Shown here: positions 9,610 through 53,742 of the stretch, one piece after another
Numbering within the stretch: position 1 is the stretch's first letter
Layout of the letters: each line of letters opens with the position of its first letter
Virus record (IMG/VR): IMGVR_UViG_3300032220_001739
Origin: an uncultured virus (IMG/VR IMGVR_UViG_3300032220_001739)
Lineage: Duplodnaviria > Heunggongvirae > Uroviricota > Caudoviricetes
Strand: one strand, 5' to 3'
DNA length: 57,495 bases
Position numbers and translations under genes: made by a program
The notes under the pieces: model-generated
The model's input: the letters and a program-made list of their open reading frames with translations, nothing else
Database searches by the model: none
Told to the model about the DNA's origin: nothing

Positions 9610-9636
9610 TAAAAGAAAGAGCAGAAGAGTTAAGAA

Positions 9637-23283: not shown

Positions 23284-24016
23284 TGTTTCGCTTTTAGTAC
23301 ACACCTGTGATGCTTATATGAAATTCTGGGGTGGTATGTTATACACTCTTGATTTTTATTGGGACTATGACAGGATCCCTGTTTACTTTTCCTCTGAGGA
23401 TGTAAGCGTGGATTCGGTTAAATTTGATTGTAAGGGGATAGAATATCACATTGACGAAAGGATCAATACGATACTAACAGGTGCTGGGGAATTCTCTGAT
23501 AGATTCATCAAATCTCTAGAGAACATAGATACAAAATGGGTTATTTATATTCAGGAGGATATGTGGTTAAGAGGACATCTTAGTCCTGACCTAGTGGATC
23601 TTCTCATAGATGAGGCTGAAAAAGACGGTGCCGATGCGGTCAAAATACACGCAGCCCTTTATTATTATAATGGATATCGTTTAGAAAAAACTGGTAAGTA
23701 TATCCAGGATAAACAAATTTTGAAATATTCGCAGGGAGACAATTTTCTATTAACCCATAATGCTACGATATGGAATAGGGAATACCTATTAAAATACCAG
23801 TTAAAGGGTGAGGACCCCTGGTCTAATGAGATTAATGGAAGTTCTAGAATGTCAAGTGAGCCTCACAATCACCTACACTATAATATAAATTGGTATTGCC
23901 AGCCAGGATTGGCTGATAAAGGTGGGTACTCTAGTGAATTTCATGTTTATGCACATATAGTTGATCATATGAAATATGTGGATCTTAAATTTGGAAGAGA
24001 TGAAATTTTAGGATGA
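23273..24016 (+). CDS. putative GT-A fold glycosyltransferase
   Basis: LLVHTCDAY, FSDR and YIQEDMWL resemble phage GT-A-like proteins, and the gene sits inside the GT cluster. Confidence 0.55.
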   Translation: MRNSVSLLVHTCDAYMKFWGGMLYTLDFYWDYDRIPVYFSSEDVSVDSVKFDCKGIEYHIDERINTILTGAGEFSDRFIKSLENIDTKWVIYIQEDMWLRGHLSPDLVDLLIDEAEKDGADAVKIHAALYYYNGYRLEKTGKYIQDKQILKYSQGDNFLLTHNATIWNREYLLKYQLKGEDPWSNEINGSSRMSSEPHNHLHYNINWYCQPGLADKGGYSSEFHVYAHIVDHMKYVDLKFGRDEILG

Positions 24017-24041
24017 ACCCGAACTATTATTAGAAAAGAAT

Positions 24042-25220
24042 ATGGAAAGCAAATTAGTAAGAGAAAAATACATAGAATCCATAGGGAATGCTCTTTCTGG
24101 ACCTAGAATAGCTAGAAGATTCTCGAATAATTCTAAAAGCATTGCCTCTTTTACTCATAATTTTATAGATGGGCCTTTCTTTGAAATAAAAAATGGACAG
24201 GATGGTCAAAAATATAGAGTTGAGTTTAGGGATGGCAACGGACATCTACATTACACATCTGACCTTTCTAATAATATGTGGGCAAAGTCTTCTATAAAGT
24301 ATTACACAAAGTGGAATATAAAGGCAATAAGCGAGGGTAACTGCGTATATGATTACACTCTGGATTATACGAATAAAAGGGTGTACATATCTATAGAATC
24401 ATCCTCCATAGGGGATAATCTAGCCTGGATACCGTATATTGACGAGTTTAGAAAGAAGCACAATTGTCATGTAATAGTGTCAACTTTCCATAATTCTATA
24501 TTTGAAAGCAGTTATCAGGATCTTGAATTTATTAACCCTGGTGAAACTGCACATAATATAACTGGCCAATATACGATTGGGTGGTTTTATGATGAAACTA
24601 AAGAACCAGTTTTACCCAATACTGTGGCCCTTCAGAAAGCTGCAACCAATATATTGGGACTTGAATTTGAAGAGATTAGACCTAGACTTTCTTTTGATAG
24701 ATCCAATAGACCACATGACAAAAAATACGTAGTGATCTCAACTAGCTCCACGTCTGGTTGCAAGGAATGGGAACATGATAAATGGCAGGATCTTGTTAAT
24801 TTTTTGAAATCAAACGAATATGATGTTGCTGTGGTTCAAAAGGACGGGACTAGTCTAGACGGAGTAATAGATTGGACTGGACCTGATCCTTTAGAAAAAA
24901 GGATGAATCAGATATACCATGCTGATTTTTTCATAGGACTTGGTTCTGGTGTGAGCTGGCTTTCGTGGGCAGTTGGAACACATGTGGTTATGCTCGCTAA
25001 TTTTTCCGAGGATGGCCACGAGTTTACGGGTAACACCACACGTATAACAAATAAGAGTGTTTGTAATTCGTGCTGGAATAACAAGAATTTTAAATTTGAT
25101 AAGGGTGATTGGTACTGGTGCCCGATAAACAAAGGTACTGATAAACAATTTGAATGTCATAAGTCAATATCTGTAGATATGGTGACAAGTATAATTAAAG
25201 AAAAAGGATTAATAAAATGA
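24042..25220 (+). CDS. Aah/TibC-family (autotransporter O-heptosyltransferase-like) GT-B protein glycosyltransferase
   Basis: N-terminal beta domain, SSIGDNLAWIPY (catalytic Asp region), FFIGLGSGVSWLSWAVG, and the four-Cys iron finger VCNSCWN...WCP...FECHKSI that marks this family. Confidence 0.85.
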   Translation: MESKLVREKYIESIGNALSGPRIARRFSNNSKSIASFTHNFIDGPFFEIKNGQDGQKYRVEFRDGNGHLHYTSDLSNNMWAKSSIKYYTKWNIKAISEGNCVYDYTLDYTNKRVYISIESSSIGDNLAWIPYIDEFRKKHNCHVIVSTFHNSIFESSYQDLEFINPGETAHNITGQYTIGWFYDETKEPVLPNTVALQKAATNILGLEFEEIRPRLSFDRSNRPHDKKYVVISTSSTSGCKEWEHDKWQDLVNFLKSNEYDVAVVQKDGTSLDGVIDWTGPDPLEKRMNQIYHADFFIGLGSGVSWLSWAVGTHVVMLANFSEDGHEFTGNTTRITNKSVCNSCWNNKNFKFDKGDWYWCPINKGTDKQFECHKSISVDMVTSIIKEKGLIK

Positions 25221-25544: not shown

Positions 25545-28052
25545 ATGAGTTTCAATCCGGAGGATAGGCTACCCAAGCCAGTTAATAAAGTTCTGAATAC
25601 TAATGGTGAGCAATACGACCTCACCAATCCAAGGTTCACAACTGCTGATGGGCTTGAGAATACTGCGAAGATCCCGTTCTCCTCAACGGATGACTATTTT
25701 TCTACACAGGAGGCTGCTGAAGCTAGAGCCCAACAGATAGGATGTGGCGGATACCATACAGTCATTGTGGAGGGTAAGCTTTATTACAGACCCTGCGAAA
25801 CCGCTAATTACTATTCTATCAGAAAGCAGCAGTTAGACTCTGCTCTTAACTTTCAATATATCGGGAATTATCGTGTCTTAACATGGGACACGCCTTTCAT
25901 TGGTGTTAGTAGATATAAGGGATGGATAATAGATGCTTCATATAGCAATAATTCAGGTCCTAGTATAAATCCTAATGATGTCCTTGTTGAGTTTAGATAT
26001 TCTATAGATGGTGAATCTTGGTCACTATGGTCAACGGTAGGGACTGCTATGAATAACTTCTCCAATACGGAGGCTGCTATTTTCGTAATAGACTTGGATC
26101 CTGCTGATAAATTCTACCCAGAGTTTAGGTTTACTTCCGTACTAATCAATCCAGATGGGACATTGGGATATGAAACTAACGAACCTGTAGACCCTAATGT
26201 AACTATAGTCGATTTCCAGCTTGATCTAGAGTATGATCTGGTTTACTTGTCTAACGCATCGTTAGATAATAGAGTTATAGCTCCTGGACTGAGATGCTCT
26301 AATGAGTATACAAATAGACCCGTAGTATTTGACGATTGTAGATTTACATTCAATCCTTATGCTGTTAACAGAGCTCTTAATCTTTATCAGGATTTGAGTA
26401 AAATAGTAAATAAGGTATTTGGCCTCGACGTTAATTATTATTCCGTTCAGCCTCAGGCTAGAGGGAAGGATGTGATATTAAAAGAATACACGCTATTTAA
26501 CGTTGTCGATGAGAAGTGTATAAAAGTTCTAGTTAATCAGAACCAATTCCCCGACAATAAAATTAACTATGATCCATTTGGTCTACAGTTCGATGAGCCT
26601 TTTGAGATTCAAATAGATCGGAGATATTTTGAGGGCATATTTGGAAATGGATCGCAACCTAGAAAAAGGGACATAATCTATTTCCCGATAACCAATAGAA
26701 TCTATGAGATAAACTCTACTTATCTTTTCAGAGATTTCATGAACGCTCCTGTTTATTATAAGATTGAGCTGAAGAAATACCAGCCAAAGAGCAACACATA
26801 TTTCCAAGATCCAGCATACAAAGAGGAATTAGATGGCATTTCACTCACAACACAGGAATTATTCGGTGCTGAAGTAACTAGTGAGGAAGAAAAAGTAACA
26901 AAGAGACAACAATACAACGAGACAACATATGTTAGATCACAGGACCCTATTAGATCCTATATCTATTACAATTTGGCTATTATTGGATATGATCTCAATA
27001 ATAACTGGACGATAGTTCTTAACAACTATTATGATCTTGAATCCTCATTTGTTGACAATTCAGAATTTACATCCGATCCATTCAAATACAGGAATGCCAT
27101 AAGATATAAGGATCTTCCTAAGCTTGGACTTAAGGAAGAATTATCTCTGACATCTTGGTGGAATCTAAGAAATGCTTACGATGATACGAAGCTTAGAAAG
27201 ATAGGATTCCCTGTTATAAACGTAAATGTTTCTTCATATACTGAATCGTATGTTGTTTACTCTACCTATCCGGTAAAGCACAATCTTACAGCATGGAATA
27301 GCTACGCAGATAATCCTAATGGATATGTTGCAATACAGGGAGATGCTTCCCACAGTGGAGGATATTTAGTAAGAAGTGTAATAGATGAATACACATTCAC
27401 CACAATAAATCAGAGCGTTGAATTCGACCCTGGTGTTACAGTATGGAGAATGCAAAAGGCCCAATCCCGTAACTTCCTTAGTGGACTTTATATAGAGGGA
27501 TTAGAATACAGGGGATTCAGATTTGATATGATCCATTCTGGTTCTATAGAGCAAGATGCTACAAACTATATCCAGCAGGGAAGCTTTTATTTGAGGCTTA
27601 ATAATGACATAGAAATTAACTCACCACTTCAGTTCACTGCTAAACACGGCGAATGGTATGCTATTGTAGTAAACGTTTCAAATAAGTATAAGCAGATTTC
27701 AATAAATGCTTGGCAGTTATCCTACGATCCCGTTAATCCTCAAGCGCAGTCTAGTGAATTGATTAAGGTGCACGAGTACGTTCAAAGCTTGGATTTACCT
27801 GTTCTATTCGATGCTCCTTCTGTTCCGGTGACCGATGTTAGCAGTCCTTTTTATGGAACAGATCAGAATTCTTATAAGGTATTTACTTCCCCTTTATATT
27901 TGTCCAATATAAGATTGTTCAAGAATATGATAGATATAGATAACCAATCAACCGTCTTAAACCAAAATATTGTAAGGGACACACAACTTGCACACATTAT
28001 AGACAACGCTAAACCGCTTCTGAACGTTCCTAGATTTGTTCGTAGTCGTTAA
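25545..28052 (+). CDS. T4 gp14-like neck/head-closure protein with large N- and C-terminal extensions
   Basis: The central FGLQFDEPFEIQIDRRYF...PRKRDIIYFPITNRIYEI...YYKIEL segment matches the gp14 pattern FG...DE..F.I...F...P..GD.IYFP....FEI. Confidence 0.65.
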   Translation: MSFNPEDRLPKPVNKVLNTNGEQYDLTNPRFTTADGLENTAKIPFSSTDDYFSTQEAAEARAQQIGCGGYHTVIVEGKLYYRPCETANYYSIRKQQLDSALNFQYIGNYRVLTWDTPFIGVSRYKGWIIDASYSNNSGPSINPNDVLVEFRYSIDGESWSLWSTVGTAMNNFSNTEAAIFVIDLDPADKFYPEFRFTSVLINPDGTLGYETNEPVDPNVTIVDFQLDLEYDLVYLSNASLDNRVIAPGLRCSNEYTNRPVVFDDCRFTFNPYAVNRALNLYQDLSKIVNKVFGLDVNYYSVQPQARGKDVILKEYTLFNVVDEKCIKVLVNQNQFPDNKINYDPFGLQFDEPFEIQIDRRYFEGIFGNGSQPRKRDIIYFPITNRIYEINSTYLFRDFMNAPVYYKIELKKYQPKSNTYFQDPAYKEELDGISLTTQELFGAEVTSEEEKVTKRQQYNETTYVRSQDPIRSYIYYNLAIIGYDLNNNWTIVLNNYYDLESSFVDNSEFTSDPFKYRNAIRYKDLPKLGLKEELSLTSWWNLRNAYDDTKLRKIGFPVINVNVSSYTESYVVYSTYPVKHNLTAWNSYADNPNGYVAIQGDASHSGGYLVRSVIDEYTFTTINQSVEFDPGVTVWRMQKAQSRNFLSGLYIEGLEYRGFRFDMIHSGSIEQDATNYIQQGSFYLRLNNDIEINSPLQFTAKHGEWYAIVVNVSNKYKQISINAWQLSYDPVNPQAQSSELIKVHEYVQSLDLPVLFDAPSVPVTDVSSPFYGTDQNSYKVFTSPLYLSNIRLFKNMIDIDNQSTVLNQNIVRDTQLAHIIDNAKPLLNVPRFVRSR

Positions 28053-28062
28053 TTTTTTATTT

Positions 28063-28842
28063 ATGCCACGCAGAAAACCAAAGATGAACAAGGTCGTCGA
28101 GGAAAAAATCAAAGAAACCCTCGATTCGATAATACTCAATGAAAATTTAGATTCAGTAGAAACTGGAACTGGAGAATTACCGAGATTAAAAACAACGGTG
28201 CAGATGGATTTCGAGGAGGAAAAAATATCCGCTGCAAGGGATGCTAAGTCTTTGCTAGATTCTTTAGCTCTGTTCTATCTTGATGATTCTGGTGCAGATA
28301 GTAACCCTTATCTTGAATACCGTAAGAAAATAGATTCCATGAACATCTCATCTATGACGTTTCAGCTTAAGAGTGCACAGCATGCGATAACTAAGTTATT
28401 GGAAGAAATAGACATGGGAAATATGACACCTAGACTTTTCGAGGTTTTAGCTCAACTGCAGGGACAGGTTATTCAGATATCTAAGGATCATCAGGCTTAT
28501 TTGGATAAAATGGAAAAAAGCTACAAGGTGATGAAGGGGGACATGGACCAGAAGAATTACAACGGAGCTGTTAGAATAGGACCAGACGGGAATTACACAG
28601 AACCCGCGAAAGGATTAGGTGATGGTTCGGGGATTAAGGTACGGGGAACAAGAGGATTGATGGAGAATCTGAGAGATCTAATAGGTGCTGAAATAGTAGA
28701 CGTTAAACCAGAGGAGATCAAGCCAGGAGCTGTTGTTAATGCTAGGGATAAGATAAGGATGGACGCTGAAGAGAAAGGATACGAGGGTGAAATACCAGAG
28801 GGTGGGGACGATCTTCAGATAGAGGATGATCTTTTTAATTAA
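28063..28842 (+). CDS. putative terminase small subunit (T4 gp16-like)
   Basis: TPRLFEVLAQLQGQ resembles the gp16 PR..EV.A.L motif, and the gene lies directly upstream of TerL. I prefer the ATG at 28063 over the TTG at 28036. Confidence 0.55.
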   Translation: MPRRKPKMNKVVEEKIKETLDSIILNENLDSVETGTGELPRLKTTVQMDFEEEKISAARDAKSLLDSLALFYLDDSGADSNPYLEYRKKIDSMNISSMTFQLKSAQHAITKLLEEIDMGNMTPRLFEVLAQLQGQVIQISKDHQAYLDKMEKSYKVMKGDMDQKNYNGAVRIGPDGNYTEPAKGLGDGSGIKVRGTRGLMENLRDLIGAEIVDVKPEEIKPGAVVNARDKIRMDAEEKGYEGEIPEGGDDLQIEDDLFN

Positions 28843-28847
28843 TTTTT

Positions 28848-30692
28848 ATGGTGGAAGAAACAAACAAGAATCAGTCTGAGCTAAATGATGGTAATTATTG
28901 GAGCACGGCTAAAGTTAACGAGTTACTCAGAAAAGCAGACGAGGAAGGGCTAGACTTCAAGAGCGTAGACAACCCTTTTCATGACAATAACCCGGAGCTA
29001 AGAAGATCCAATGTACTATTCGAGTACACGCAGGAGGAGATAATAGAAATTGACAAGTGCGCAAGAGACGTCATCTATTTTGCAAAATATTGTCAGGTCA
29101 TGACCGATACCGGTCTTGCTTATATTACTCTGAGAGAATATCAAGAATCGGTATTAAGAGAATATCAGGCCAATAGATTTAATATATTTCTAGCACCCCG
29201 GCAGGTTGGTAAATCTATAATGTCCGCTGTTTTTCTGGTGTGGTTTTTACTTTTCAATCACGATAAAAATGCGATGATCCTGGCAAACGTTGGTGACACA
29301 GCAGAGGAATTGATGGATAAGATAAAGGCCATAATAAAAGGATTGCCTTTTTTCTTGAAGCCCGGAATGATGGTCAATAATGTGATGTCTGTGCGTTTTG
29401 ATAACGGATGTAGGGTTATTGCTAAAACGACCACTAAGACATCCGGTATCGGTTTTACTATTCATTTTTTATACATGGACGAGTTTGCTCACATTAATTC
29501 GTCCTTTATGGAAGCTTTCTTCAGGTCCACATACCCCACAGTATCCTCCTCGAGGGTGTCCCGAATTATTATAACATCTACCCCAAATGGAATGAATAAG
29601 TTCTATGAGATGTATATGAGCGCTGTTAAAAAGGAGAACACATTCAATCCAATTAGGGTTGATTGGTGGCAGGTACCGGGAAGGGATGATGTGTGGAAAA
29701 ATAATGAAATATCTAACCTTGGGTCGGAGGAGCTATTTAATCAGGAGTATGGTAATCAGTTCTTAAGCTCCTCTACTTTGCTACTTGGATCACAGGAGTT
29801 ACAGAAGATAAAAAGAAACGAGGTAGAGTACTTATGGAGGGAGATTGATGAATTTCATTACTCTGACGTAAATTATGAGAATTTTCTATGGCATCCTAAA
29901 TTTGATATAGATAGCGCTGCAGAAGGGAATAAAAAATATGTTGTATCCGTCGATCTCTCAGGTGGAAACAAGGGTGATTTTACCGTCATTAATGTTTTCA
30001 AGGTCTCTCCTCTTCCAAAGAAAGTGATAGAAAGAATAGGTGAATTTGAGGACGAGGGCGATTTCTTTGGTCTTATCCAGGTTGGTATATTAAGGGACAA
30101 CGAGATAAAACTGGAGGATGTAGTTAAGATACTTAGAATACTGGTAAAGAATGTACTGGGTGTCGAATCTGTGAAAATAGCTCTTGAGATAAATTACAAG
30201 GGAGAGCTTCTGGTTGATAAGTTTCTTGCTGACGAGGATCTTTTTGAGGAAATTTTTGTTTACACTAAGCATTCTGAATCTGCTAGATCTTCTAAAGCTG
30301 GTATAAAATACAATGAAAAGAACAAGATGAAAAACTGTGAGCAGCTCAGAACACTTGTTAGAGCAGACAGAATATTGGTGAATGATAAGAAATGGACAGT
30401 GCCTGAACTATTCACATTTGGTCTGAATTCAAGAGGAACATATTCCAGCCAAACAGGTCATGATGACGTTGCTATGTCCCTGGTTAATCTCTCCTCTGCT
30501 TTTGAAAGTGGAGATTTCTACCAGCTGGTCGGAGAACTTTTTGATGTGATGGAAACCCCATATAAAGGATTAATATTAAATAAAATGGGGGAAACCGGAC
30601 AATCCCAATCTTCCGAAGAATTTGGATTCGGGAGTCAGGGTCCTTCTACCAAGGACGGAAAAAGCTTTAGGGACTTTAGTTCCATGATGTAG
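28848..30692 (+). CDS. terL: terminase large subunit (T4 gp17-like)
   Basis: LREYQ Q-motif, Walker A APRQVGKS, Walker B LYMDEFAH, ITSTPNGMNKFY, FNQEY, nuclease motifs VDLSGG and HDDVAM. Confidence 0.95.
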   Translation: MVEETNKNQSELNDGNYWSTAKVNELLRKADEEGLDFKSVDNPFHDNNPELRRSNVLFEYTQEEIIEIDKCARDVIYFAKYCQVMTDTGLAYITLREYQESVLREYQANRFNIFLAPRQVGKSIMSAVFLVWFLLFNHDKNAMILANVGDTAEELMDKIKAIIKGLPFFLKPGMMVNNVMSVRFDNGCRVIAKTTTKTSGIGFTIHFLYMDEFAHINSSFMEAFFRSTYPTVSSSRVSRIIITSTPNGMNKFYEMYMSAVKKENTFNPIRVDWWQVPGRDDVWKNNEISNLGSEELFNQEYGNQFLSSSTLLLGSQELQKIKRNEVEYLWREIDEFHYSDVNYENFLWHPKFDIDSAAEGNKKYVVSVDLSGGNKGDFTVINVFKVSPLPKKVIERIGEFEDEGDFFGLIQVGILRDNEIKLEDVVKILRILVKNVLGVESVKIALEINYKGELLVDKFLADEDLFEEIFVYTKHSESARSSKAGIKYNEKNKMKNCEQLRTLVRADRILVNDKKWTVPELFTFGLNSRGTYSSQTGHDDVAMSLVNLSSAFESGDFYQLVGELFDVMETPYKGLILNKMGETGQSQSSEEFGFGSQGPSTKDGKSFRDFSSMM

Positions 30693-34136: not shown

Positions 34137-34691
34137 ATGGCAGGCTTACCACATTTTTCAAACTCGATCGCATCGATGAATAACTTCGAACCGGTTTACT
34201 TAAACCAGTTTGAGGTAGTAATAAATCCACCAGCTGCTGTAGCTGGTGGACCTATTCTTTTACAGCACGTAACGAAGGTTTCTGGTATGGATGTAGATAA
34301 AAATCCAGCACCTGTAGCTCAGAAGTACAAGTTTGCAAAAAGAAACTACGCGGGAGCTAAACCAGATACTACTGGGATGACCGTTTCAATGAGCTTCACT
34401 GTGAACTTGAACGATGCTAATTCTATGTATGTTTTTAAAACACTAAGACAATGGACGGATCTTATCTATAATCCATTAACCGGAGCAATGGGTGTTAAAA
34501 ATGACTATGTAGGGTCAATAGTTATTTCAATCTTTAATAAAAACGGTGACGTTTTTAAAAGAGTAGTTTGTAAAGACTGCTTCCCACTTAGCGCAATTTC
34601 GCCAATGAACATAAGTTATGCAGCAGAAGAGGTTTGGAAGATAGACAATATGGAATGGGCAGTTGATTATTGGGAAGATCTATTCCTATAA
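34137..34691 (+). CDS. tail tube protein (gp19-like), paralogue 1
   Basis: Follows the sheath gene. NQFEV, LRQWTDLIYNPLTG, DCFP and DYWE are tube-family motifs. Confidence 0.8.
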   Translation: MAGLPHFSNSIASMNNFEPVYLNQFEVVINPPAAVAGGPILLQHVTKVSGMDVDKNPAPVAQKYKFAKRNYAGAKPDTTGMTVSMSFTVNLNDANSMYVFKTLRQWTDLIYNPLTGAMGVKNDYVGSIVISIFNKNGDVFKRVVCKDCFPLSAISPMNISYAAEEVWKIDNMEWAVDYWEDLFL

Positions 34692-34707: not shown

Positions 34708-35283
34708 ATGTCAGGATTACCACACTATACTAATTCTCAAGCTGCTATACAGCTTTACGAACCAGTTTATCTTAACCAGTTCGAGGTTATTATTAATACC
34801 CCAGCGGGTGTTCAGCAGTTACCTGGTTTAAATGGAGAATTGATACTGACCCAGCAGGTTAAATCTATATCCGGTATGACCGTTGATATACAGCCATCTG
34901 GACCAGTTGAGCAATTCTATAAGTTCGCTACTAGAAGATATGCGGGGGGTGAACCCTCCCAGACTGACATGGATTTAACCATGGAATTCGAGGTTAACCT
35001 TAACGAATCCAATTCGATGACTGTGTACAGGAGTCTTAGACAATGGTCGGATCTTATCTATAATCCATTGACTGGTGCTATGGGACTTAAGCGTGATTAT
35101 GTTGGATCTATGGTTATATCTATATTCAATAAGCAGGGTGATGTTTTTAGAAGAATAAGAATACCGGTTTGCTTTATAAGTACGCCAATACCAGCTTTGG
35201 AGTTAGATTATGACCAGGGAGCTAATATCTATAGTATTAGTATTTCTTGGAAATGCGATTACTGGGAAGATCTTTTCTTGTAA
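34708..35283 (+). CDS. tail tube-like protein (gp19/gp54-like), paralogue 2
   Basis: Collinear with the previous gene: GLPH, EPVYLNQFEV, LRQWSDLIYNPLTGAMG, SIFNKQGDVF, DYWEDLFL. Confidence 0.8.
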   Translation: MSGLPHYTNSQAAIQLYEPVYLNQFEVIINTPAGVQQLPGLNGELILTQQVKSISGMTVDIQPSGPVEQFYKFATRRYAGGEPSQTDMDLTMEFEVNLNESNSMTVYRSLRQWSDLIYNPLTGAMGLKRDYVGSMVISIFNKQGDVFRRIRIPVCFISTPIPALELDYDQGANIYSISISWKCDYWEDLFL

Positions 35284-42452: not shown

Positions 42453-43142
42453 ATGGCAGATTACCCACAGATCCAACAGGAGTCAAATAACTTAAATTAC
42501 GACGGAGGAGGTAGTACAGGCGGTACATATACCCAAACTGTACAGGGTGGATCTAATAGTGCGCCAGTTTTCACACCTGGTGCTTGTACTTTTACTGCTA
42601 GATACACTAACGTTGCTCGAACAAGGGAAGCATTACCGCTGATAGATTGGACGTTTAAGTATAAGAACCAACCTGCTTTTTTTAAATACTTCAAGTCCTC
42701 TTTTAATGTGTGTTTGCAGTCAAATGTGATGGATACCCTGAGCTTAGCTTCTTTTTTCCATCCTTTTCTTTCTTTCTCTAGTTACCAAAAGCAAACATTT
42801 GTAATAGGCCCGAATACTTCAATCGATGTAGATACCGGTAATTTTGCCAACACATTAAACGAGGTTAGCTTTATATTGGCAAGAGCTTATTATCTGCCAA
42901 CACAAAAGGGAGCTGCTAGAGTATTATTTTGGGACTATGACGGAAACACTAGATACCCGATGGGTGAAATAATGGTTTTAACTGGCGCTGTAAAAGAGGA
43001 TCAGAATTGGAGGGGGTGGAATATAAGTTCTTTCTCTAATATAGGTCACACAGGTCCTGTATCCAATCCTAGTTTGGGTGGCATCACCTTTACAAACCCA
43101 ACCGAATCGCCAGTTAAACTGGTAGTAATAACAGCAAACTAA
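42453..43142 (+). CDS. hypothetical protein (paralogue of the next gene)
   Basis: Shares VSFI..A.Y, W.Y.GN, MGE..VL.G, GWN and GGIT..NP with 43144..43629. Confidence 0.7.
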   Translation: MADYPQIQQESNNLNYDGGGSTGGTYTQTVQGGSNSAPVFTPGACTFTARYTNVARTREALPLIDWTFKYKNQPAFFKYFKSSFNVCLQSNVMDTLSLASFFHPFLSFSSYQKQTFVIGPNTSIDVDTGNFANTLNEVSFILARAYYLPTQKGAARVLFWDYDGNTRYPMGEIMVLTGAVKEDQNWRGWNISSFSNIGHTGPVSNPSLGGITFTNPTESPVKLVVITAN

Positions 43143-43143
43143 T

Positions 43144-43629
43144 ATGGCAACAAGACCCGTTATATGTCCCTATATAGAACCAGAGGGATTGAAATTCGAA
43201 AGAACTAACCTGGTTATAGATTCAAACAGCATGATGAATCCTCAAATAGTGCTTATGTTAGAGGATTTGTTATTTGATGTTCCTGCATATTCAAAATCCA
43301 CAATAAATCTTAAAGCTGAATCCTGCGCACTGATAAGCCAATCGGACATAGCTGATCCTGGAGGGTACGTTAGCTTTATAGCTATTAAAGCAGTATACCC
43401 AGCTGGGACTTTAGAAAAAGACAAGTTCATTACATGGGAGTACAGGGGTAATGAATATTTTATGGGTGAACTTACTGTATTGAGCGGTGTTAATATTACA
43501 ACTTTTGATTCTGAGCAATATGGATGGAATCTGGCTAAACCTGGACCAGTATACCAGGACGGAGGTATAACGGTGTGTAATCCACACTTAGACAAAAGGG
43601 TAATTTTAGAGATATTGGTTTGCAGATAA
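43144..43629 (+). CDS. hypothetical protein (paralogue of the previous gene)
   Basis: Same shared motifs as the previous gene; 161 aa. Confidence 0.7.
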   Translation: MATRPVICPYIEPEGLKFERTNLVIDSNSMMNPQIVLMLEDLLFDVPAYSKSTINLKAESCALISQSDIADPGGYVSFIAIKAVYPAGTLEKDKFITWEYRGNEYFMGELTVLSGVNITTFDSEQYGWNLAKPGPVYQDGGITVCNPHLDKRVILEILVCR

Positions 43630-43691: not shown

Positions 43692-46373
43692 ATGGACTTC
43701 ATTAACAAAGTACAAAAATTAAAAGAAACTACTACCTCACCGGAGGTTAAATCTCTATGTGAGAACTTCTTAAACGAGGCATTAAATAAAAATACCCTTA
43801 TAGAGGGACTTAAAAATTCTAATGATGCTGAGGTTTCTGGTTTCTTAAGAGAAAATACATCAAACATCTGGAACGATTTCAGAAATCAAGAAATGGAAGC
43901 TTCCAAAAGAGCAGCTTCTTCACTTTTGGAATCTTGGAGCCAGAATACATCTAAAGGAGATAATTCTGGAACTTGGATTACGCCTTCTAAAGAAAAATCA
44001 GGTGATAAAGAGATGAGTTCTTTAAACGAGTCCCTTTCCCACATAAAAGGTGATAAATCTGTTAATTCTTTTTTAACCTCTGAGTCCATTAAAAATCTAG
44101 GTGTTCTTGAGTCTGTTAAGTCTCTTCTTAGTTCACCTGTTGCCGATCACATGAAGGCTAAGATCATGTTAGAGAATTATAAAAATATCCTTGTTAATAA
44201 GAATATACCAGAGTACGCAGTTATTGAAAATTTTGTTAATGATTTAAGCCAATTGACATGGGATGCTAAATCTAAGGAGGTCTTTGAATCACTTCTAGGT
44301 AAAGCTAATACTTACAACAGAGAGATATACGTTTCTAAAGTGATAGATTCTATTAAGGGATCTGGATCTAGAGAATTTTATTCTGATCTTTATGAGTGTT
44401 TAAATGAGTGGATGGTATCTAAAGACAAGTCAAACGGTCTACTAGTTAATCAAATCTCTAAATATTCTTTCAATCCTGTAGTTAAAAACCTTATAAACTA
44501 TTTGAATCTTAACGAAAGCCGAAAAGATTCAAGCAGACTTTCTATCCCTGAGACTAATCAAGGTGAATCGTATGTAGAGAGAGCTTATTCCGCAATGGCA
44601 ACTAACGAGGATCAAAATTTCGCATTTGGTCTTGGTGGATTCATTTTCGAAGCAACAGAGAATGGCGTACAGAGAATAGACGCTAAGACTGCAGCTTCGT
44701 CATACGGTAGTACATTTGTTAATCTATTGGGAATTACTTCTAGACCTGATGTTAAGATAAATGAAGCGGGTGTTCATTTCTCAATCGGCAAGAAAGTAGT
44801 TAGTATAACAGAAGGAACGGAGAATAGTCCTAATGTATTTGTTGGTAGAAATAAATTAGCTTTCTCTAATGTTAACGAAATGGCTAAGATAATAGGATTG
44901 GAAGTATCCTCTTATATGGGATATAACGATATGTCTCTTGTAAAAGATATAGCTACCGTTTATGAAAATTACAATTCTTTTGTAGAGCTTGATTTTGCTA
45001 AGTCTATCGTATCTAGAATTTACGAGGGACTTTCTGTTAATCTGTTCAAATGGAACGATAAGATCTACCTTCAAAGAATAAATGAAGCTATGAGAGAGAA
45101 TTCAATATTCTCTGTTAATAGCATGCAAGCTGTTAAGTTAGTAAAAGACACATTAAGATATGATATTTCTGAGGGTCTAAGCGAATTCTTGGTTGGCGAA
45201 TTAAGAACTAAATCGGTTCTTCTAAATGACAGATCTAGTCTTCTTGAAAACATACAAAATGTTGAGGAACAGTTGGCCAAAGTTCAATCCTTGATAGAGC
45301 ATCCTAACTACTCCCATTCGTCTGAGCTTAAAGAAGCAGAGAAAATGCTAAAAAGGGAATTGAAGGTTTTAAGAAATAAATGGACTAGCATCAACGAGGA
45401 GATTGAGAAAATTGAAAATGTTGATTTAGATCCTAGTATGTACCTTATAGAGGATGCTAAATTTAATATAGGAGACTATGTTAAAATAAAAGAATCCGGA
45501 GAAACTGGTAAAATCGTTTCAATAGACGGTACTTCGGGAAGATATACAATTTTAACCGATGCAGGTAGAACAGAGGATCATAGAGTAAATGATATTCAAG
45601 ATTTAGAGGAAGCTATGTCAGATGCAGCAGAAAAAAATGCTGAAAAGACAAGTGATTTCGATAAAGACTATTTCGACAATGATCCTGCTAGTGATATAGA
45701 AAGTGACGAGTCTGAAGAAGAGGATGGCACTGAGGAAGTAAAGGAATCAAATACTACTTTATCTAAAGCACCTACAAGAACTAAAAATGTTAAAGAAAAG
45801 CAAGCACAGCCAACATATGCTAAAGCTCCTAGGTCTAAAGATCAGGAGAAACCAATGGCTCACGACCTAAAGAATCCTAAAGCTGCCCATTATGCGGAAG
45901 GAATTAAAGGACAAAAGCCAACAGATTTCGATGTTGCTGGATATGCTATTGGTTATAATATCGACGAAGCTAGCGAAGTAAAGGACGGATCACAAGGATT
46001 AGCAGAAGCTCCTAATTTCGGTAAAATCGAGAGAATGCATGATAAAAATGCTTTAGCTGGTATGGCACAGAAACACGGATACGCGAAAGCTCCTGGTGGG
46101 AATGACAAAATAGATCTTTCATTGGATCTACTACACGGATATAGAAAGGTACAGGAAGGGGTAAAAGGCGATGTTGCTAAAACGGATCCAAATCTTGCTG
46201 TAGCACCTTCTTTTAAAGGTGAGGAGAAAAGCATCATGGCTCATGACATTAAAAACGAAAAGGCTTTTAATTTCGCTACCGCACCAAGCAAGCACAGAGA
46301 TGCTATAGACTTTGGAATAAATGACGAGATCGGTTATAACGTAGACGAATCTGAATTGCAAAAAAAAAAGTAA
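43692..46373 (+). CDS. large prohead core/scaffold-like internal head protein
   Basis: 893 aa with many L/I-x-E sites (LNEA, LIEG, LLES, LNES) like T4 gp21 protease sites, a coiled coil, an SH3/KOW-like FNIGDYVKIKESGETGKIVSID segment, and C-terminal xAKAP repeats. Two late motifs lie upstream. The function is inferred. Confidence 0.45.
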   Translation: MDFINKVQKLKETTTSPEVKSLCENFLNEALNKNTLIEGLKNSNDAEVSGFLRENTSNIWNDFRNQEMEASKRAASSLLESWSQNTSKGDNSGTWITPSKEKSGDKEMSSLNESLSHIKGDKSVNSFLTSESIKNLGVLESVKSLLSSPVADHMKAKIMLENYKNILVNKNIPEYAVIENFVNDLSQLTWDAKSKEVFESLLGKANTYNREIYVSKVIDSIKGSGSREFYSDLYECLNEWMVSKDKSNGLLVNQISKYSFNPVVKNLINYLNLNESRKDSSRLSIPETNQGESYVERAYSAMATNEDQNFAFGLGGFIFEATENGVQRIDAKTAASSYGSTFVNLLGITSRPDVKINEAGVHFSIGKKVVSITEGTENSPNVFVGRNKLAFSNVNEMAKIIGLEVSSYMGYNDMSLVKDIATVYENYNSFVELDFAKSIVSRIYEGLSVNLFKWNDKIYLQRINEAMRENSIFSVNSMQAVKLVKDTLRYDISEGLSEFLVGELRTKSVLLNDRSSLLENIQNVEEQLAKVQSLIEHPNYSHSSELKEAEKMLKRELKVLRNKWTSINEEIEKIENVDLDPSMYLIEDAKFNIGDYVKIKESGETGKIVSIDGTSGRYTILTDAGRTEDHRVNDIQDLEEAMSDAAEKNAEKTSDFDKDYFDNDPASDIESDESEEEDGTEEVKESNTTLSKAPTRTKNVKEKQAQPTYAKAPRSKDQEKPMAHDLKNPKAAHYAEGIKGQKPTDFDVAGYAIGYNIDEASEVKDGSQGLAEAPNFGKIERMHDKNALAGMAQKHGYAKAPGGNDKIDLSLDLLHGYRKVQEGVKGDVAKTDPNLAVAPSFKGEEKSIMAHDIKNEKAFNFATAPSKHRDAIDFGINDEIGYNVDESELQKKK

Positions 46374-46636: not shown

Positions 46637-46996
46637 ATGGCAAAAGTTTATGTTAAAAACAGTGAGCTCCTTAGAGCTGTATCCGAATCTAAAGAGAAGG
46701 GTCAGCTAACAAGAGAGACGATCGATATGTTTACCCTCATGATAGAAGGTATTTCTAAGAAGATGGCTTACAAGGATCCTGACGATAAGGACGATTGTAT
46801 GGCTTTTGCCATGGAGGATCTTTGCAAATATTGGAATAGATTTGACCCTGCTAAATCTAATAATCCATTTGCCTACTTTACGCAGGTTGCAAAGAATGGA
46901 TTTGCTAAGGGATGGAAGAAATTACACCCACCAAAGAATCCCAAAACTATACCCTTCAGTTATATAACAGGAGAGGATAATAGTTACAACGTTTAA
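46637..46996 (+). CDS. gp55: T4 gp55-like late transcription sigma factor
   Basis: YVKNSELL and DDCMAFAMEDLCKYWNRFDPAKSNNPFAYFTQVAKNGF carry the gp55 signature FDP.KS.NPFAYFTQ. Confidence 0.85.
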   Translation: MAKVYVKNSELLRAVSESKEKGQLTRETIDMFTLMIEGISKKMAYKDPDDKDDCMAFAMEDLCKYWNRFDPAKSNNPFAYFTQVAKNGFAKGWKKLHPPKNPKTIPFSYITGEDNSYNV

Positions 46997-46997
46997 T

Positions 46998-47483
46998 ATG
47001 TCCATAAAAAAGGTTAAACCTAACGGAAAACACAAACATGGGCTTTATAGTCCACAGAATCCCGATAAGTACATAGGTGATATACATAATATCATTTATA
47101 GATCTTCGTGGGAGCAGAGATTCTGTGCATATTGCGATAGAAACGAAAGGATAGTTAAATGGAGCTCTGAACCTCTTTTTATAGATTACTGGAATCCATT
47201 AGATAAGAAAATGCACAAATACTATGTGGATTTTTACATAAAGACTCTAAAAGAAGACGACACCTATCAGGAGTGGATAATAGAGGTTAAGCCAGAGTCA
47301 CAAACTCAAAAGCCGATATACGAGGGTAAAAATATGACTCTTAAAAAACTGGAGAGTTATAACTATAATATGAAAATATGGATAACAAATCAGGCAAAAT
47401 TTAAAGCTGCTAAAGAATGGGCTATCCAAAGAGGTTTTAGATTTGGTGTAGTTGACGAGAAATTTCTTTTTAATAGTAAATGA
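46998..47483 (+). CDS. gp4: T4 gp4-like head completion nuclease (TnsA-like fold)
   Basis: NPDKYIGD..IIYRSSWE..FC.YCD.N..I.KWSSE...YYVDF...IEVKP...NQAKFKAA. Confidence 0.88.
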   Translation: MSIKKVKPNGKHKHGLYSPQNPDKYIGDIHNIIYRSSWEQRFCAYCDRNERIVKWSSEPLFIDYWNPLDKKMHKYYVDFYIKTLKEDDTYQEWIIEVKPESQTQKPIYEGKNMTLKKLESYNYNMKIWITNQAKFKAAKEWAIQRGFRFGVVDEKFLFNSK

Positions 47484-48124
47484 GTTTTTCTGAAAAAATA
47501 AAATCATACAAGGACGGATTCATATCCCAATCTGAGGTTGTTTCTAAAACTGACGAGTATTTTATAAGCTCCTATATAAAGTTATCGAACAGGGATTTTC
47601 GACCTGAAAAGTTCGACGGCCAATTTCTTCCTGGTAAGATCTATATTTTTAGATATAATCCTAAGCAGAAACCCGATGACGGTAAAAAAAAGGAGAAGGA
47701 GTTCATAAACAGACTGCCGATAGTTTTAGCTTTTGATGTTAAGAAATCAAAAGATCTAAACAACATCCTATATGGATCGGATTTAATAGCTACCCCACCT
47801 GACGAAAGAGTTAAGATATTGGAGAGGGTCTATGATTTTTCAGAGAGCATAATAGATTCTAATAAAAAATCGGGAAGCCAATCTCCCGTGAACCTAAGTG
47901 GTGATAATGTAAAGTCTTTATTGAAAGGTACTGGATATATTGGAAGCACTAAAGGATTCGATATTTCATCAATGTCCGAAGTCTATGTTATAGGCTATGA
48001 TGATTGGAAAAAAATACCATATCTTAGTGTAGCCCTTCTTCAAGGGTCTTCTCCGATTGAGATATATAATTCCTATAGATCGAAATTAAAAGATAATTCT
48101 GGTCTAGAAAATAAAAATAAGTAG
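47480..48124 (+). CDS. T4 gp2-like DNA end protector
   Basis: PGKIYIFRYNPK...NRLPIVL motif, and position directly after gp4 as in T4-like phages. Confidence 0.55.
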   Translation: MSFSEKIKSYKDGFISQSEVVSKTDEYFISSYIKLSNRDFRPEKFDGQFLPGKIYIFRYNPKQKPDDGKKKEKEFINRLPIVLAFDVKKSKDLNNILYGSDLIATPPDERVKILERVYDFSESIIDSNKKSGSQSPVNLSGDNVKSLLKGTGYIGSTKGFDISSMSEVYVIGYDDWKKIPYLSVALLQGSSPIEIYNSYRSKLKDNSGLENKNK

Positions 48125-48127
48125 TGA

Positions 48128-49702
48128 ATGGCTGGTTTTATAGATAACGAAAATGGTAATCCGGTATTTCAGAGGATTAGGGAATCTGTTAAGTCGATCT
48201 CTAAGTTCGGTATGAAATACGAGGACATGGTGATTAAGAACTCCATGGCTGTTGGTGCTACTGAAGCTGCTTTCATTAATCAGAACAAAACAAACGTTCC
48301 TGATGAGAATATGATGTATAGTCTTGCGAAGCAAGATACTATGGTCAAACAGTATATCTCTTATTTCGACAAGGATTATAAGGGAAAGAGGGATTATCTT
48401 AGGAAATTCTCCCTTAACCCAGAGATAGAAGGAGTTCTTGATATTGTTTGTGACGAATCCATAAACTACGACCCCTCTAATTATTACGCATATCCCGATT
48501 TTCTAGATATAACTACTCTAAAAGAAAAAACAAGAGAAAAGGTTTATGATGTTTTTAGAAAAATATATGACATCTGGGGATTTAGCGATGATATAACAGC
48601 ATGGCAATTCTTTAGACAATTCATGGTGGATGGATTCCTTGCATTTGAAATAATCTGGGACAATAGGGGGAAAGAGATAATTGGATTTAAAGAATTGGAC
48701 GCTACTTCTTTAATACCTAGCGTAGAAAAACAACCAGACGGAAGACATGTCAACGTTTGGATACAATTTCCGAATGACCCTAAAAAGACAAGAATGCTAT
48801 ATGACTCACAGATCATATACATGTCTTATGCTAAGGGAAATTCAGTTTCCAGATTAAGCTACGTTGAGAGATTAATTAGACCTTATAATACCCTAAGAAT
48901 TATAGAATACACTAGGGTAATTTGGTCAGTGATGAATGCTTCATTCAAGCTTAAAATGACCGTTCCTGTTGGATCAAGATCACCTCAGAAAGCTATGCAG
49001 ACCTTGGGTGAACTTATGAGTATCTATAAGGAGGATATTAGCTTGAGCGATGATACTGGTGAATTGCTAGTTGACGGAGCGCCTAAGATACAATTCTATA
49101 AGAATTATCTGATACCACAAGGCCAAAACGGTCAACCTACAATTGAGCCCTTGACAATGGAGGGACCAAACTTAAATGATCCTGCCCCTCTTGCATATTT
49201 CTACGATAGATTCATAGAGGAATCTAAAATACCTGCTACAAGATTTAAGGGATTAGATGGATCTTCTAGTGCAACATATTCCAACACTGCGGATGGACTG
49301 GACAAGGAAGAGGTAAGATTTAGTAAGTTCATAAGTAGATTGAGAACCAATTTTCAGGATATCATTATAAAGCCACTTTGGTTACAAATATGTAAAGACA
49401 ATCCGGAATTAGAAAAAGATCTAGTTTTTAAGAGCCAACTTGGACTTAAGTACATCAGTGAGAACCCTTTTAGGGTAAACCAGGAGATGGAATTGATCAC
49501 TAAGAGAAAAGAAAGCGTAGATTCATTGGCTGCTATAATGGAAGACGGGGATAAACCTTATTTTTCACAGACTTACTTAATTGAGAATTTTCTCGGACTT
49601 ACACCTGCAGACATTAAAGCTAACAAGATAGCAAAAGAAAAGAATGCCAAGAAGAAAGAGAAGGAAGGCGGAGAGGAAGAAGCACCAGAAGTTACTTTAT
49701 AA
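48128..49702 (+). CDS. gp20: portal protein (T4 gp20-like), paralogue 1
   Basis: PEIEGVLDIVCDESI, FRQFMVDG, SYVERLIRPYNTLRIIE, KIPATRF and EEVRFSKFISRLRTNF are gp20 motifs. Confidence 0.9.
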   Translation: MAGFIDNENGNPVFQRIRESVKSISKFGMKYEDMVIKNSMAVGATEAAFINQNKTNVPDENMMYSLAKQDTMVKQYISYFDKDYKGKRDYLRKFSLNPEIEGVLDIVCDESINYDPSNYYAYPDFLDITTLKEKTREKVYDVFRKIYDIWGFSDDITAWQFFRQFMVDGFLAFEIIWDNRGKEIIGFKELDATSLIPSVEKQPDGRHVNVWIQFPNDPKKTRMLYDSQIIYMSYAKGNSVSRLSYVERLIRPYNTLRIIEYTRVIWSVMNASFKLKMTVPVGSRSPQKAMQTLGELMSIYKEDISLSDDTGELLVDGAPKIQFYKNYLIPQGQNGQPTIEPLTMEGPNLNDPAPLAYFYDRFIEESKIPATRFKGLDGSSSATYSNTADGLDKEEVRFSKFISRLRTNFQDIIIKPLWLQICKDNPELEKDLVFKSQLGLKYISENPFRVNQEMELITKRKESVDSLAAIMEDGDKPYFSQTYLIENFLGLTPADIKANKIAKEKNAKKKEKEGGEEEAPEVTL

Positions 49703-49716
49703 ATAAAAAAATAAAA

Positions 49717-51366
49717 ATGGCAGGATTTATAGATCCCATACAACCAAATAGTGCATTCGGAACGATACTGAGAAGTCTTTCTCAGATATCTAGGTTTGGT
49801 ATGAAGTACGAGGATATGGTTGTTAGGAATTCACAGGCCATAGGTAAGACCGAATCAGAATTCTTCAACGAGCAAGGAACCGGATTTACTGAAAGCGATG
49901 CTTTCTATTGGACAGTTTCTCATTCCGATACAAAAGTAAGAAAGTACATAGCTTATTTTGATAAGGATTACATAGACAAAAGAAACTTTCTTAGGAAGTT
50001 TTCGCTAAACGGTGAGATTGAGTTTATACTCGATACGGTAACTGATGAAGCTGTGGTTTACGACGAGAAGAATTATTTTGCATATCCCGAGATCAAGAAT
50101 TTGGACGTAAGTGATAAGGTGAAAGATAAACTGATGGAGAATTTTTACCGGATCTATCATCTTTTTAATTTTCAGGAAAGTATATTAGCTTGGCAGGTAT
50201 TTAGGCAGCTCCTAATTGATGGGTTTCTAGCTTATGAGATAATCTACGATAGCAGAGGCAAGCAAGTTATTGGATTTAAAGAACTCGATGCAACATCACT
50301 TCAGCCTATGGTTGAAAAAGTTGGCGAAAATGATTTTCAGCAGGTTTGGGTTCAGTATCCAAAGAATCCCCAGATGACAAGAAAGCTTAAGAATGAGCAG
50401 GTTATCTACATATCATATGCTAAAGGTAATTCAATTTCCAGGGTAAGTTATGTTGAGAGATTAGTTAGATCCTATAACATCCTGAAAATAATGGAGAACA
50501 GTAGGATTATATGGAATGTCATGAACGCTTCATATAGATTGAAGTTTGTTATACCTATAGGTACACAGTCACCGCAAAAGGCCATGCAAACGCTAGGGCA
50601 AATAATGTCTTATCATAAAGAGGAGATATCTATAAACGACAATTCAGGGGAATTGACTGTTAACGGAAGACCAAAAATTCAGTTCTATAAAAACTATCTT
50701 TTCCCTGAGAAGGATGGTGTTTCTCCTACCATAGAAACACTAAATGCAGCTGGACCTGATTTTAATATCATGGACAACGTGCTTTACTTCTTCAATAAAC
50801 TAAAGCAAGATTCTAAAATACCGTATGCGAGATTTGCTTATAGAGGTGGAACACCTGCAAACAACCAAATTAGCATTGATTCTTTAGAAAGAGATGAGAT
50901 AAGGTTCGAGAAGTTTCTTTCCAGATTGAGATCGATTTATCAGGAAATCATAGTTAAGCCTCTTTATATACAAATGTGTCTTGATTATCCTGAGCTTGTA
51001 AAAGATAGAAGCTTTAAAACTAATCTTGGAATTAATTTCGTAAGGGAAAGCGAATTCAACGATCTGGTTGAACTTGCTAATCTAGTTAAAAGAGGGGATT
51101 TTATAAAATCTCTTGCTGACATGAAAGTTAAAGTTGGTGAAGAAGAGCAGCCTTATTTTGATAAAGATTTCCTTGTTCAGAGATTTTTAGGTCTAACACC
51201 GGAGCAGATAGAGGGCAATGCTTCATACAAAGAGCTTGAAGCTAAATCTGCTAAAAAGGAAAGCTCTACTAGCGGAGCTGAGGGCGAGGCAGCTCCAGCG
51301 GAAGAAGAAGCGGCAGCTCCAGCGGAAGAAGAAGCGGCAGCACCCGCTGAGGAAAAGACTGCATAG
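49717..51366 (+). CDS. gp20: portal protein (T4 gp20-like), paralogue 2
   Basis: EIEFILDTVTDEAVV, FRQLLIDG, SYVERLVRSYNILKIME, KIPYARF and RDEIRFEKFLSRLR. Confidence 0.9.
   Translation: MAGFIDPIQPNSAFGTILRSLSQISRFGMKYEDMVVRNSQAIGKTESEFFNEQGTGFTESDAFYWTVSHSDTKVRKYIAYFDKDYIDKRNFLRKFSLNGEIEFILDTVTDEAVVYDEKNYFAYPEIKNLDVSDKVKDKLMENFYRIYHLFNFQESILAWQVFRQLLIDGFLAYEIIYDSRGKQVIGFKELDATSLQPMVEKVGENDFQQVWVQYPKNPQMTRKLKNEQVIYISYAKGNSISRVSYVERLVRSYNILKIMENSRIIWNVMNASYRLKFVIPIGTQSPQKAMQTLGQIMSYHKEEISINDNSGELTVNGRPKIQFYKNYLFPEKDGVSPTIETLNAAGPDFNIMDNVLYFFNKLKQDSKIPYARFAYRGGTPANNQISIDSLERDEIRFEKFLSRLRSIYQEIIVKPLYIQMCLDYPELVKDRSFKTNLGINFVRESEFNDLVELANLVKRGDFIKSLADMKVKVGEEEQPYFDKDFLVQRFLGLTPEQIEGNASYKELEAKSAKKESSTSGAEGEAAPAEEEAAAPAEEEAAAPAEEKTA
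51289..51336 (+). repeat. 24-bp perfect tandem repeat x2 (AAPAEEEA) plus a degenerate third copy in the portal-2 tail
   Basis: gcagctccagcggaagaagaagcg occurs twice, followed by gcagcacccgctgaggaa. Confidence 0.9.
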
Positions 51367-52796: not shown

Positions 52797-52857
52797 TTTG
52801 AATTCTGACCAGATATTAGACCTTTTTATTGATATATAATTTAAAAATATATTAAAA

Positions 52858-53742
52858 ATGGTTGTATACAGAGTAACAAATCTAATAAACGGAAAAATTT
52901 ACATCGGAAAAGATTCTAGGAACGATCCAAATTATTATGGCTCTGGTATTCTTATAAAAAAATCAATTATAAAATATGGGATTTCCAATTTTATTAAAGA
53001 AATTCTTGGTGTGTACACTTCGGAAGATGAGCTTAACGAGGGGGAAATATACTGGATTAAAGAGCTAGATTCTAGAAATCCTATGATAGGGTATAATATT
53101 TCAGAAGGCGGTGAAGGATTTAATTTAAAAAATCTGCCAAATTACGATGAAATTAAAGAGAAAATGGATAAATCTCCCCATCTTAGAAAAAGCTATATTG
53201 AAAAGTATGGGCAGGAAAGGTCTAAAGAGATAATTAAAAAAAAATCGGAAACTTATAAAAGGAATTCAAAAACATCTGGGGATCTTAACTCTTCTAAAAG
53301 ACTAGAAGTTAGAGAAAAAATATCAAGAGGTGTTAAAAAATATATTGAAGAAAATCCTAACGTAATTGAGGAATTTAAGAACAGACAGAAAAAAATTATT
53401 GATAATAGAAGGGGAAAAAATTTTGCAGAGATATTCGGAGAACGTATGGCAGAGAGAATAAGAATAAAAATTTCGGAAAGTAAAATGGGTGATTCCAATC
53501 CATCTAAAAGGAGTGACGTAAGGGAAAAAATAAAGGAGGGTGTCAGAAGACATATAGAAAATATGTCATTGATTCCTGCGTGGTCTTTTTTAGAAATTGA
53601 ATCAGGTAAGAAACATATCATAGGGAGGGGTAAATTAAAGGAATTTTGCGAATCACACGGATTGTCACTCAGTAAAATAAAGTACAGGCTATCGAAATCG
53701 TCTTTCTTTACTTTTTCTGGCTGGATGATAGAAAAATTATAA
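52858..53742 (+). CDS. free-standing GIY-YIG homing endonuclease (Seg-like) with NUMOD-type repeats
   Basis: VYRVTNLINGKIYIGK...YYGSG...KYG..NF.KEIL...E..WI...GYNISEGGEG, plus repeated GD.N.SKR..VREKI. Visibly more A-rich than its neighbours. Confidence 0.9.
   Translation: MVVYRVTNLINGKIYIGKDSRNDPNYYGSGILIKKSIIKYGISNFIKEILGVYTSEDELNEGEIYWIKELDSRNPMIGYNISEGGEGFNLKNLPNYDEIKEKMDKSPHLRKSYIEKYGQERSKEIIKKKSETYKRNSKTSGDLNSSKRLEVREKISRGVKKYIEENPNVIEEFKNRQKKIIDNRRGKNFAEIFGERMAERIRIKISESKMGDSNPSKRSDVREKIKEGVRRHIENMSLIPAWSFLEIESGKKHIIGRGKLKEFCESHGLSLSKIKYRLSKSSFFTFSGWMIEKL

Follow-up and report, generated by a model that had tools for sequence, protein, structure and literature searches.

Tandem portal genes in a clade of large T4-like phages: an old, retained duplication and a possible two-subunit portal

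The portal of tailed phages and herpesviruses, which lies between the five-fold vertex with its motor and the six-fold tail, is regarded as a ring of twelve identical subunits. The stretch of DNA analysed here, 57,495 nucleotides of an uncultured Caudoviricetes virus (IMG/VR record IMGVR_UViG_3300032220_001739; hereafter the window), carries two portal genes side by side, which we call A and B. We describe the pair, trace its origin and constraint, and weigh how two portal proteins could serve one phage.

Two gp20-family genes in tandem

Both open reading frames (ORFs) are uninterrupted and lie on the same strand, separated by a short spacer:

48128..49702, + strand: portal copy A, 524 amino acids (aa), T4 gp20 family (PF07230, phrog_213, Foldseek)
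49703..49716, + strand: spacer between A and B, 14 nt, A-rich
49717..51366, + strand: portal copy B, 549 aa, T4 gp20 family, ending in an acidic Ala/Pro/Glu repeat

A and B each belong to the gp20 portal family. In profile searches PF07230 scored 193 bits on A and 218 bits on B, compared with a curated cut-off of 22.9, covering model positions 7-427 and 6-427, respectively, of 433, and both proteins matched phrog_213 across nearly the entire profile. Both proteins also matched T4 gp20 chains of the PDB; for B, phmmer gave the entries 3JA7, 6UZC and 9LU6 (E 4e-19). AlphaFold2 models of the two copies, built on 42-sequence alignments and with a mean predicted local distance difference test score (pLDDT) of 58, had T4 gp20 as their top Foldseek match (E 6e-14 for A; E 2e-18 for B, to a gp20 chain); the ranks below were other portals, with template modelling scores of just 0.4-0.5. 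The description of the locus in the initial annotation as two adjacent, intact, full-length gp20-like ORFs holds, coordinates and lengths included. The likeness to T4 gp20 (PF07230; PDB 3JA7, 6UZC, 9MKB, 9LU6/9LU7) extends over profile, fold, domain order and a basic residue at the clip tip, and the gene neighbours (gp55, gp4, gp2, terminase, sheath and tube) are T4-like as well. T4 itself has one portal gene, and twelve gp20 molecules make up its ring (PMC4493910; PMC12929629), whereas here there are two genes whose products are 50% identical.

The two proteins align from the start to the crown (residues 1-515 of A and 1-517 of B; BLASTP), with 258/521 identical positions and 10 gaps, and the alignment contains all eight motifs on which the initial annotation had based its end-to-end comparison. 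At the DNA level identity is 57% over 1548 aligned bases and the longest exact run is 15 nt, so an assembly repeat is ruled out, as had been supposed. The A/B junction is moreover spanned by contigs of three other sequencing runs (X2, 49630-49860; X3, 49439-49958; X4, 48997-49931). The end of B (51280-51366) is a short Ala/Pro/Glu tandem repeat whose length differs among close strains.

Distribution, origin and constraint of the pair

Portal loci were collected from eight scans of viral, metagenome and genome contigs (most of them limited to the 80 best among as many as several hundred matches) and from six GenBank records, and were sorted by best hit; of the resulting 489 loci some overlap on the same contig. 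An A- or B-type gene is present in 197 of them. Both genes, A first, are found in 186, and the remaining 11 carry one gene and stop at a contig edge; no relative with room for both thus holds A or B by itself, the situation that would have spoken against a retained pair. The other 292 loci have a portal of single-copy type. All but one of the 186 two-gene loci are intact, the sole broken copy being A of locus L036 (L036:4373-5989), in which codon 201 is an in-frame TAG. Counting the window, clade 1 contributes 75 distinct complete pairs and clade 2 another 21, 96 in total; those below 90% identity number 25 and 8, respectively (33). The spacer measures -1 to 22 nt in 75/75 distinct complete clade-1 pairs, and A is immediately preceded by the gene for the DNA end protector in 67/75.

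Searches of whole records returned exactly two PF07230 genes in 5/5 two-portal records, from genomes of 245-430 kb, two also in the nearest record, and one in 5/5 single-portal sister records. Among GenBank phages, 2108/2110 records that match PF07230 hold a single place of match. In a 735-kb phage with two places, the second PF07230 match is no more than a 58-position, 22-bit piece. The nearest homologues of A and B, 30-51% identical to them, are those of single-portal large phages: LR756500, LR756501, LR756504, Lak, Sphingomonas phage PAU, Tenacibaculum phage PTm1 and IMG/VR sister lineages. The closest within GenBank belong to uncultured phages of 462-735 kb, Lak phages, PTm1 and PAU (30-45% identity). 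The IMG/VR single-portal sisters have terminase, neck, tube and capsid homologues in common with the two-portal phages; single-portal phages differ in having one PF07230 gene (5/5 sister genomes) or one of full length (4/4 GenBank records), and their portals branch outside A and B. In one sister-lineage locus (L308:4001-5650) the single-copy portal is split into two ORFs about 180 nt apart, possibly by an intron. Nearly all other T4-like phages examined have a single copy of this gene, and the pair is an old duplication shared across its clade.

Phylogenetic reconstruction on selected representatives traces the pair to one event. In a tree of 63 proteins the A copies of clades 1 and 2 form one clade (support 100/99), the B copies another (99/99), and A and B are joined to each other (96/96) with none of 33 single-copy portals inside. 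A mixture-model tree of 23 proteins concurs (A+B 96/97, A 100/99, B 100/97). Separate duplications in the two clades, under which A and B of clade 1 would group together, are rejected by the approximately unbiased test (p-AU 0.0016). Two deep clades of large T4-like phages descend from the ancestor in which this single tandem duplication took place, and the branching within A mostly mirrors that within B. The distances in A and B correlate at 0.93, and at 0.76 as a partial correlation after ligase and clamp loader are taken into account (19/25 representatives), a value that linkage and a shared fold explain equally well.

Both copies are under strong and equal purifying selection. The mean ratio of nonsynonymous to synonymous substitution rates (dN/dS; Nei-Gojobori, core codons) is 0.015 for A and 0.010 for B, from those 32 of the 2775 clade-1 genome pairs, not independent of one another, in which dS lies at 0.1-1.5 in both genes. 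Over all 2775 pairs the mean ratio of dN in B to dN in A is 1.02. Conservation of wing, stem, clip, tunnel and crown is about the same in A as in B, and neither copy contains a relaxed domain; relaxed selection, named by the initial annotation as a sign against its reading, was looked for in both copies and found in neither. Within clade 1, A-A and B-B identities fall to 62% and A-B identities lie at 47-56%, and the two-gene loci taken together include orthologues as far apart as about 53% identity. An old and retained duplication is upheld by its one origin, the mirrored trees, the dN/dS values and the lack of any single-copy relative with room for the pair. The TAG in A of L036 is what could be said for an assembly artefact, a recent duplication or a decaying pseudogene, to which we give almost no credence in view of the low DNA identity, the junction crossed in three other runs, 96 distinct complete pairs and dN/dS near 0.01.

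Divergence of the copies and composition of the portal

Where the two copies differ can be read against T4, with domain limits and residue roles taken from the T4 portal report (PMC4493910). The elements concerned, together with a motif ahead of the pair, are:

48061..48068, + strand: GATATATA, promoter-like motif ahead of A, within the end of the preceding gene
48974..48991, + strand: clip tip of A, residues 283-288, aligned through B to T4 gp20 291-296
49112..49150, + strand: A-specific clip segment, residues 329-341
49247..49291, + strand: tunnel-loop core of A, residues 374-388, net charge 0
50563..50580, + strand: clip tip of B, residues 283-288, aligned to T4 gp20 291-296
50836..50877, + strand: tunnel-loop core of B, residues 374-387, net charge +1

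Residues 291-296 of T4 gp20 are described as the site at which the terminase docks (PMC4493910). At the aligned positions Q287 and K288 are invariant in 42/42 A and 42/42 B sequences, K288 being aligned to T4 K296, so that by alignment a basic clip tip is kept at the predicted docking site in both copies. Elsewhere the divergence of the copies is complementary, with the changes of A in the clip and those of B in the loops that face the DNA. Four residues are fixed in A of both clades and rare in B and in 21 near single-copy portals: Q75, M329, G335 and P341, of which three belong to the clip (the A copy of the window has I329, most others M329). A reads N334-G335 and P341 where B and the single-copy portals read G-E/Q and T/S/V; K461 and a deletion in the crown are additional to A. 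A proposal that P341 of A replaces T349 of T4 was dropped, since two alignments conflict (T349 when aligned through B, V347 otherwise). B has lost the ancestral D351 and L355 and has V355 and E391 fixed. The tunnel loop, between helices 7 and 8, has a core of 13-16 residues in A, B and single-copy portals alike and is modelled with low pLDDT. Its net charge is positive in 33/33 B representatives and zero or negative in 33/33 A representatives and 27/27 single-copy portals, which makes the charge of B, not that of A, the derived state, although the 33 cases may represent one or two events. In T4 the tunnel loops hold back the last packaged DNA, according to two reports (PMC4493910; PMC12929629).

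A hydrophobic C-terminal motif follows another pattern. Among the 33 representative pairs it is present in A alone in 9 (2 of clade 1, 7 of clade 2), in B alone in 9, in both copies in 11 and in neither in 4, and it also occurs in the nearest single-copy portals (L359-L361, L384). In the window A has the motif, whereas B lacks it, unlike the close relatives L006 and L008, which keep it. The pattern looks as if one copy can supply the motif.

The motif GATATATA was chosen from the sequence preceding A and afterwards tested on other genes and genomes. On the + strand of the window ATATATA occurs at 9 sites, 8 of them within 90 nt of a gene start (7 genes, including neck, sheath and portal A); stretches of this kind make up about 7% of the window. 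Among clade-1 representatives, the 80 nt ahead of A contain the motif in 25/25 and those ahead of B in 0/25; by eye, it also precedes A in 8/8 clade-2 representatives. We regard GATATATA as probably a phage late promoter and, given the shared motif before A and the spacers of -1 to 22 nt, A and B may well lie on one late transcript. A promoter of B's own, the T4-type TATAAATA over the stop codon of A (49698-49705), was considered and rejected: it has 9 sites in the window compared with 7.8 expected and is present in 1/25 representatives. A sigma-70 scan of the window gave 12 sites compared with 17.3 expected.

The partner genes of the portal in the window are:

25545..28052, + strand: gp14-like neck gene, single, 835 aa (PF11649, phrog_679)
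28848..30692, + strand: large terminase, single (PF03237)
34137-34691 and 34708-35283, + strand: a tandem pair of tail-tube genes, for proteins of 184 and 191 aa with 55% identity

In the two-portal genomes searched, the large terminase has one match in each of 2/2, the gp14-like neck gene has one PF11649 match in each of 3/3, and a full-length capsid gene is single in 3/3 records. With terminase, neck and capsid genes single, there is seemingly one motor and one neck for two portal proteins.

We therefore favour, with moderate confidence, a reading in which A and B both serve as subunits of one portal ring, whatever their arrangement. One ring containing both proteins is the most economical arrangement because there is one motor and one neck, constraint is equal, no copy has been lost and the changes are complementary. 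In such a scheme both products of the single tandem duplication would have been kept at full length and in the same order behind one promoter-like motif, would be produced together late in infection and, having inherited identical ring interfaces, would co-assemble into one ring at the sole tail-bearing vertex. The alterations of A would be in the clip and those of B in channel loop, helix 7 and tunnel loop, the last having turned basic; we propose that neither copy can now be lost because each changed where the other did not. In the simplest geometry A and B would alternate in an A6B6 dodecamer of six-fold symmetry, and the six basic tunnel loops of B would provide most of the grip on DNA during headful retention. 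Strict alternation is a tentative part of the proposal, to which we give somewhat less than an even chance, and we hold with similar reserve its fullest form, an obligate A6B6 ring in which A is the remodelled clip on the side of motor and neck and B supplies the basic tunnel and channel loops that hold DNA. Alongside the duplication, copy-specific residues, retention and constraint that we observe, we infer co-transcription, co-assembly, a stoichiometry and a division of labour.

Proteasome and CCT rings are heteromers of paralogues. Duplicated homomers in yeast often yield heteromers, as described in one study (PMC6711710), and the likeness here is that of a self-assembling ring subunit that was duplicated with both copies kept; unlike the known paralogue heteromers, an A/B heteromer is a prediction from sequence.

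Several points weigh against a ring of two subunits. Retention under purifying selection is equally expected if A and B form separate rings. Charge would be no bar to a ring of A alone, because its tunnel loop is like that of single-copy portals, which presumably form homo-rings. Strict fixed differences between A and B amount to 7 columns and one indel column, located by sequence only, and the structure models are of modest confidence, with pLDDT below 50 in the clip. The C-terminal motif is missing from both copies in 4/33 pairs and from many single-copy portals. The RNA runs X1 and X2 contain 5-7% of words and have short contigs of depth 2-6 on A and B, for which DNA carry-over is possible. 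Finally, the lineage with the doubled portal gene has a doubled tail-tube gene as well, which is also compatible with two particle types: the tube gene has two copies in 7/7 two-portal records and one in 5 single-portal records, and was not found in 3 more.

This last point bears most directly on the alternative that A and B form separate homo-rings in different particles or at different vertices, be it two virion types, each with its own portal and tube, or a packaging and an ejection vertex. Specialisation of this kind might also predict the contrast between the clip of A, which touches motor and neck, and the DNA-facing loops of B. We nevertheless consider it unlikely, and a second vertex in particular is less likely given the single terminase, neck and capsid genes of the genomes searched and the Q-K that both copies keep at the clip tip. 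Separate rings also fit poorly with a common promoter-like motif and equal rates, and co-expressed paralogues would have to acquire interfaces that shut each other out, yet A and B have kept 75-85% identity in stem helix 5. A doubled tube need not accompany a doubled portal: for phage G one report mentions two tail-tube subunits and names one portal gene (PMC12484599).

It is more doubtful still that one copy is the mature portal and the other a portal-fold assembly accessory (for procapsid nucleation, membrane recruitment or a transient second ring) that is absent from virions or minor in them. A gp13-type adaptor was sought as the cause of the duplication, through a 12:6 mismatch at the neck or loss of the adaptor, and none was identified in these genomes; an assembly role may accordingly be open, and the channel loops of B do deviate from the ancestral state. 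An accessory should, however, have lost constraint somewhere, whereas all five domains are about equally conserved in the two copies, and single-portal relatives carry the same neck gene, so nothing seen needs replacing.

Equally improbable, in our judgement, is a pair of interchangeable subunits, kept for dosage or robustness and mixed at random in the ring. Equal rates, the common promoter-like motif and the like length and domain order would all suit it. Against it stand the absence of loss in 186 loci whose orthologues diverge to about 53% identity, and copy-specific residues and loop charge that are fixed across both clades. One head requires only about twelve portal subunits, and dosage is for this reason a weak ground for two copies.

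If A and B do share a ring, a large aquatic phage clade (genomes of about 245-430 kb) would possess the first portal in tailed phages to combine two gene products, and this portal would have arisen on the branch that also gave rise to a two-subunit tail tube. A portal encoded in nature by two genes would mean that twelve-fold identity is dispensable, and its half-rings could be mutated separately in tests of DNA grip, motor firing, full-head sensing and the fixing of ring size at twelve. Strict A/B alternation would permit even subunit numbers only; for the recombinant T4 portal, about 10% 13-mers are given in the T4 report (PMC4493910). The A/B pair serves also as a marker of an uncultured, widespread clade, in which marker-gene pipelines that presume one portal per genome will mix paralogues.

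A search of full-text literature, with the supplements of huge-phage surveys and subscription journals largely outside its scope, returned no description of a duplicated, second, paralogous or hetero-oligomeric phage portal; the pair may stand unremarked in the annotation tables of such supplements. The accessible portions of PMC9723584, PMC10914622, PMC7824862, PMC13573597, PMC13282480, PMC9958956, PMC12929629, PMC12929587, PMC12484599 and PMC7162821 contain no mention of two portal genes. Phages with bS21, for which one report uses the plural 'portal vertex proteins' (PMC9723584), were considered as a two-portal case and dismissed, as the 62 of 231 'portal' supplement rows available give one portal gene per scaffold.

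Neighbouring genes in the window and its relatives

The window is part of a large T4-like phage. Its genes run in the order neck, large terminase, sheath, two tube genes, gp55, gp4, gp2, portal A, portal B, ligase, GIY-YIG endonuclease and clamp loader. The context is that of T4-type morphogenesis, with terminase, neck, sheath and tube within the window and three T4-like genes right upstream of A:

46637..48124, + strand: gp55-like late sigma factor, gp4-like head completion nuclease and gp2-like DNA end protector (phrog_234, phrog_218, phrog_429)

In the relative G003 the protease and capsid genes follow about 12-14 kb downstream. Two clade-1 genomes, L495 and L496 (G002 and G003), have a second, short Gp23-family match of about 300 aa far from the capsid gene. 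In the single-portal genome G007 the terminase match (C1:100888-104319) consists of two pieces separated by about 1.7 kb, and another partial terminase homologue, of 319 aa, lies at 255769-256548. The neck protein of the window (835 aa) has a gp14-like middle with long N- and C-terminal additions, and its homologues in one- and two-portal relatives measure 650-833 aa. Ahead of the large terminase, a 268-aa gene (28036-28842) is a small-terminase lead (PF11053 on 21% of one Atlas cluster, at a high score).

A third tandem pair of paralogues (42453-43142 and 43144-43629) encodes proteins of 229 and 161 aa that are 28% identical over 147 residues (E 2e-11) and gave no match in Pfam, PHROG or NCBIfam searches. 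It is followed at 43692-46373 by a gene that has two ATATATA motifs ahead of it. The 893-aa product belongs to no known family, is repetitive in its C-terminal part and is probably a late structural protein; the gene is not a paralogue of the 863-aa gene that precedes the protease in G003. Two genes ahead of the prohead protease, at L497:8402-9214 and L502:18557-19300, lies a conserved phrog_36119 protein with a sequence motif that we take to resemble a nucleotidyltransferase.

An NCBIfam search of the window proteins yielded no useful match, and a tRNA search of the window found none. Two long collagen-repeat fibre genes (6196-14718 and 18596-25220; 1137 and 1693 aa) are followed by glycosyltransferase and methyltransferase genes, which suggests that the collagen-repeat fibres of the virion are glycosylated. 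Between ligase and clamp loader, a GIY-YIG-type homing endonuclease (52858-53742) has its own GATATATA at 52831. The gene resembles a mobile insert missing from close strains, because its region is uncovered in runs X3 and X4 and the X3 contigs have loose ends at 52866 and 53775.

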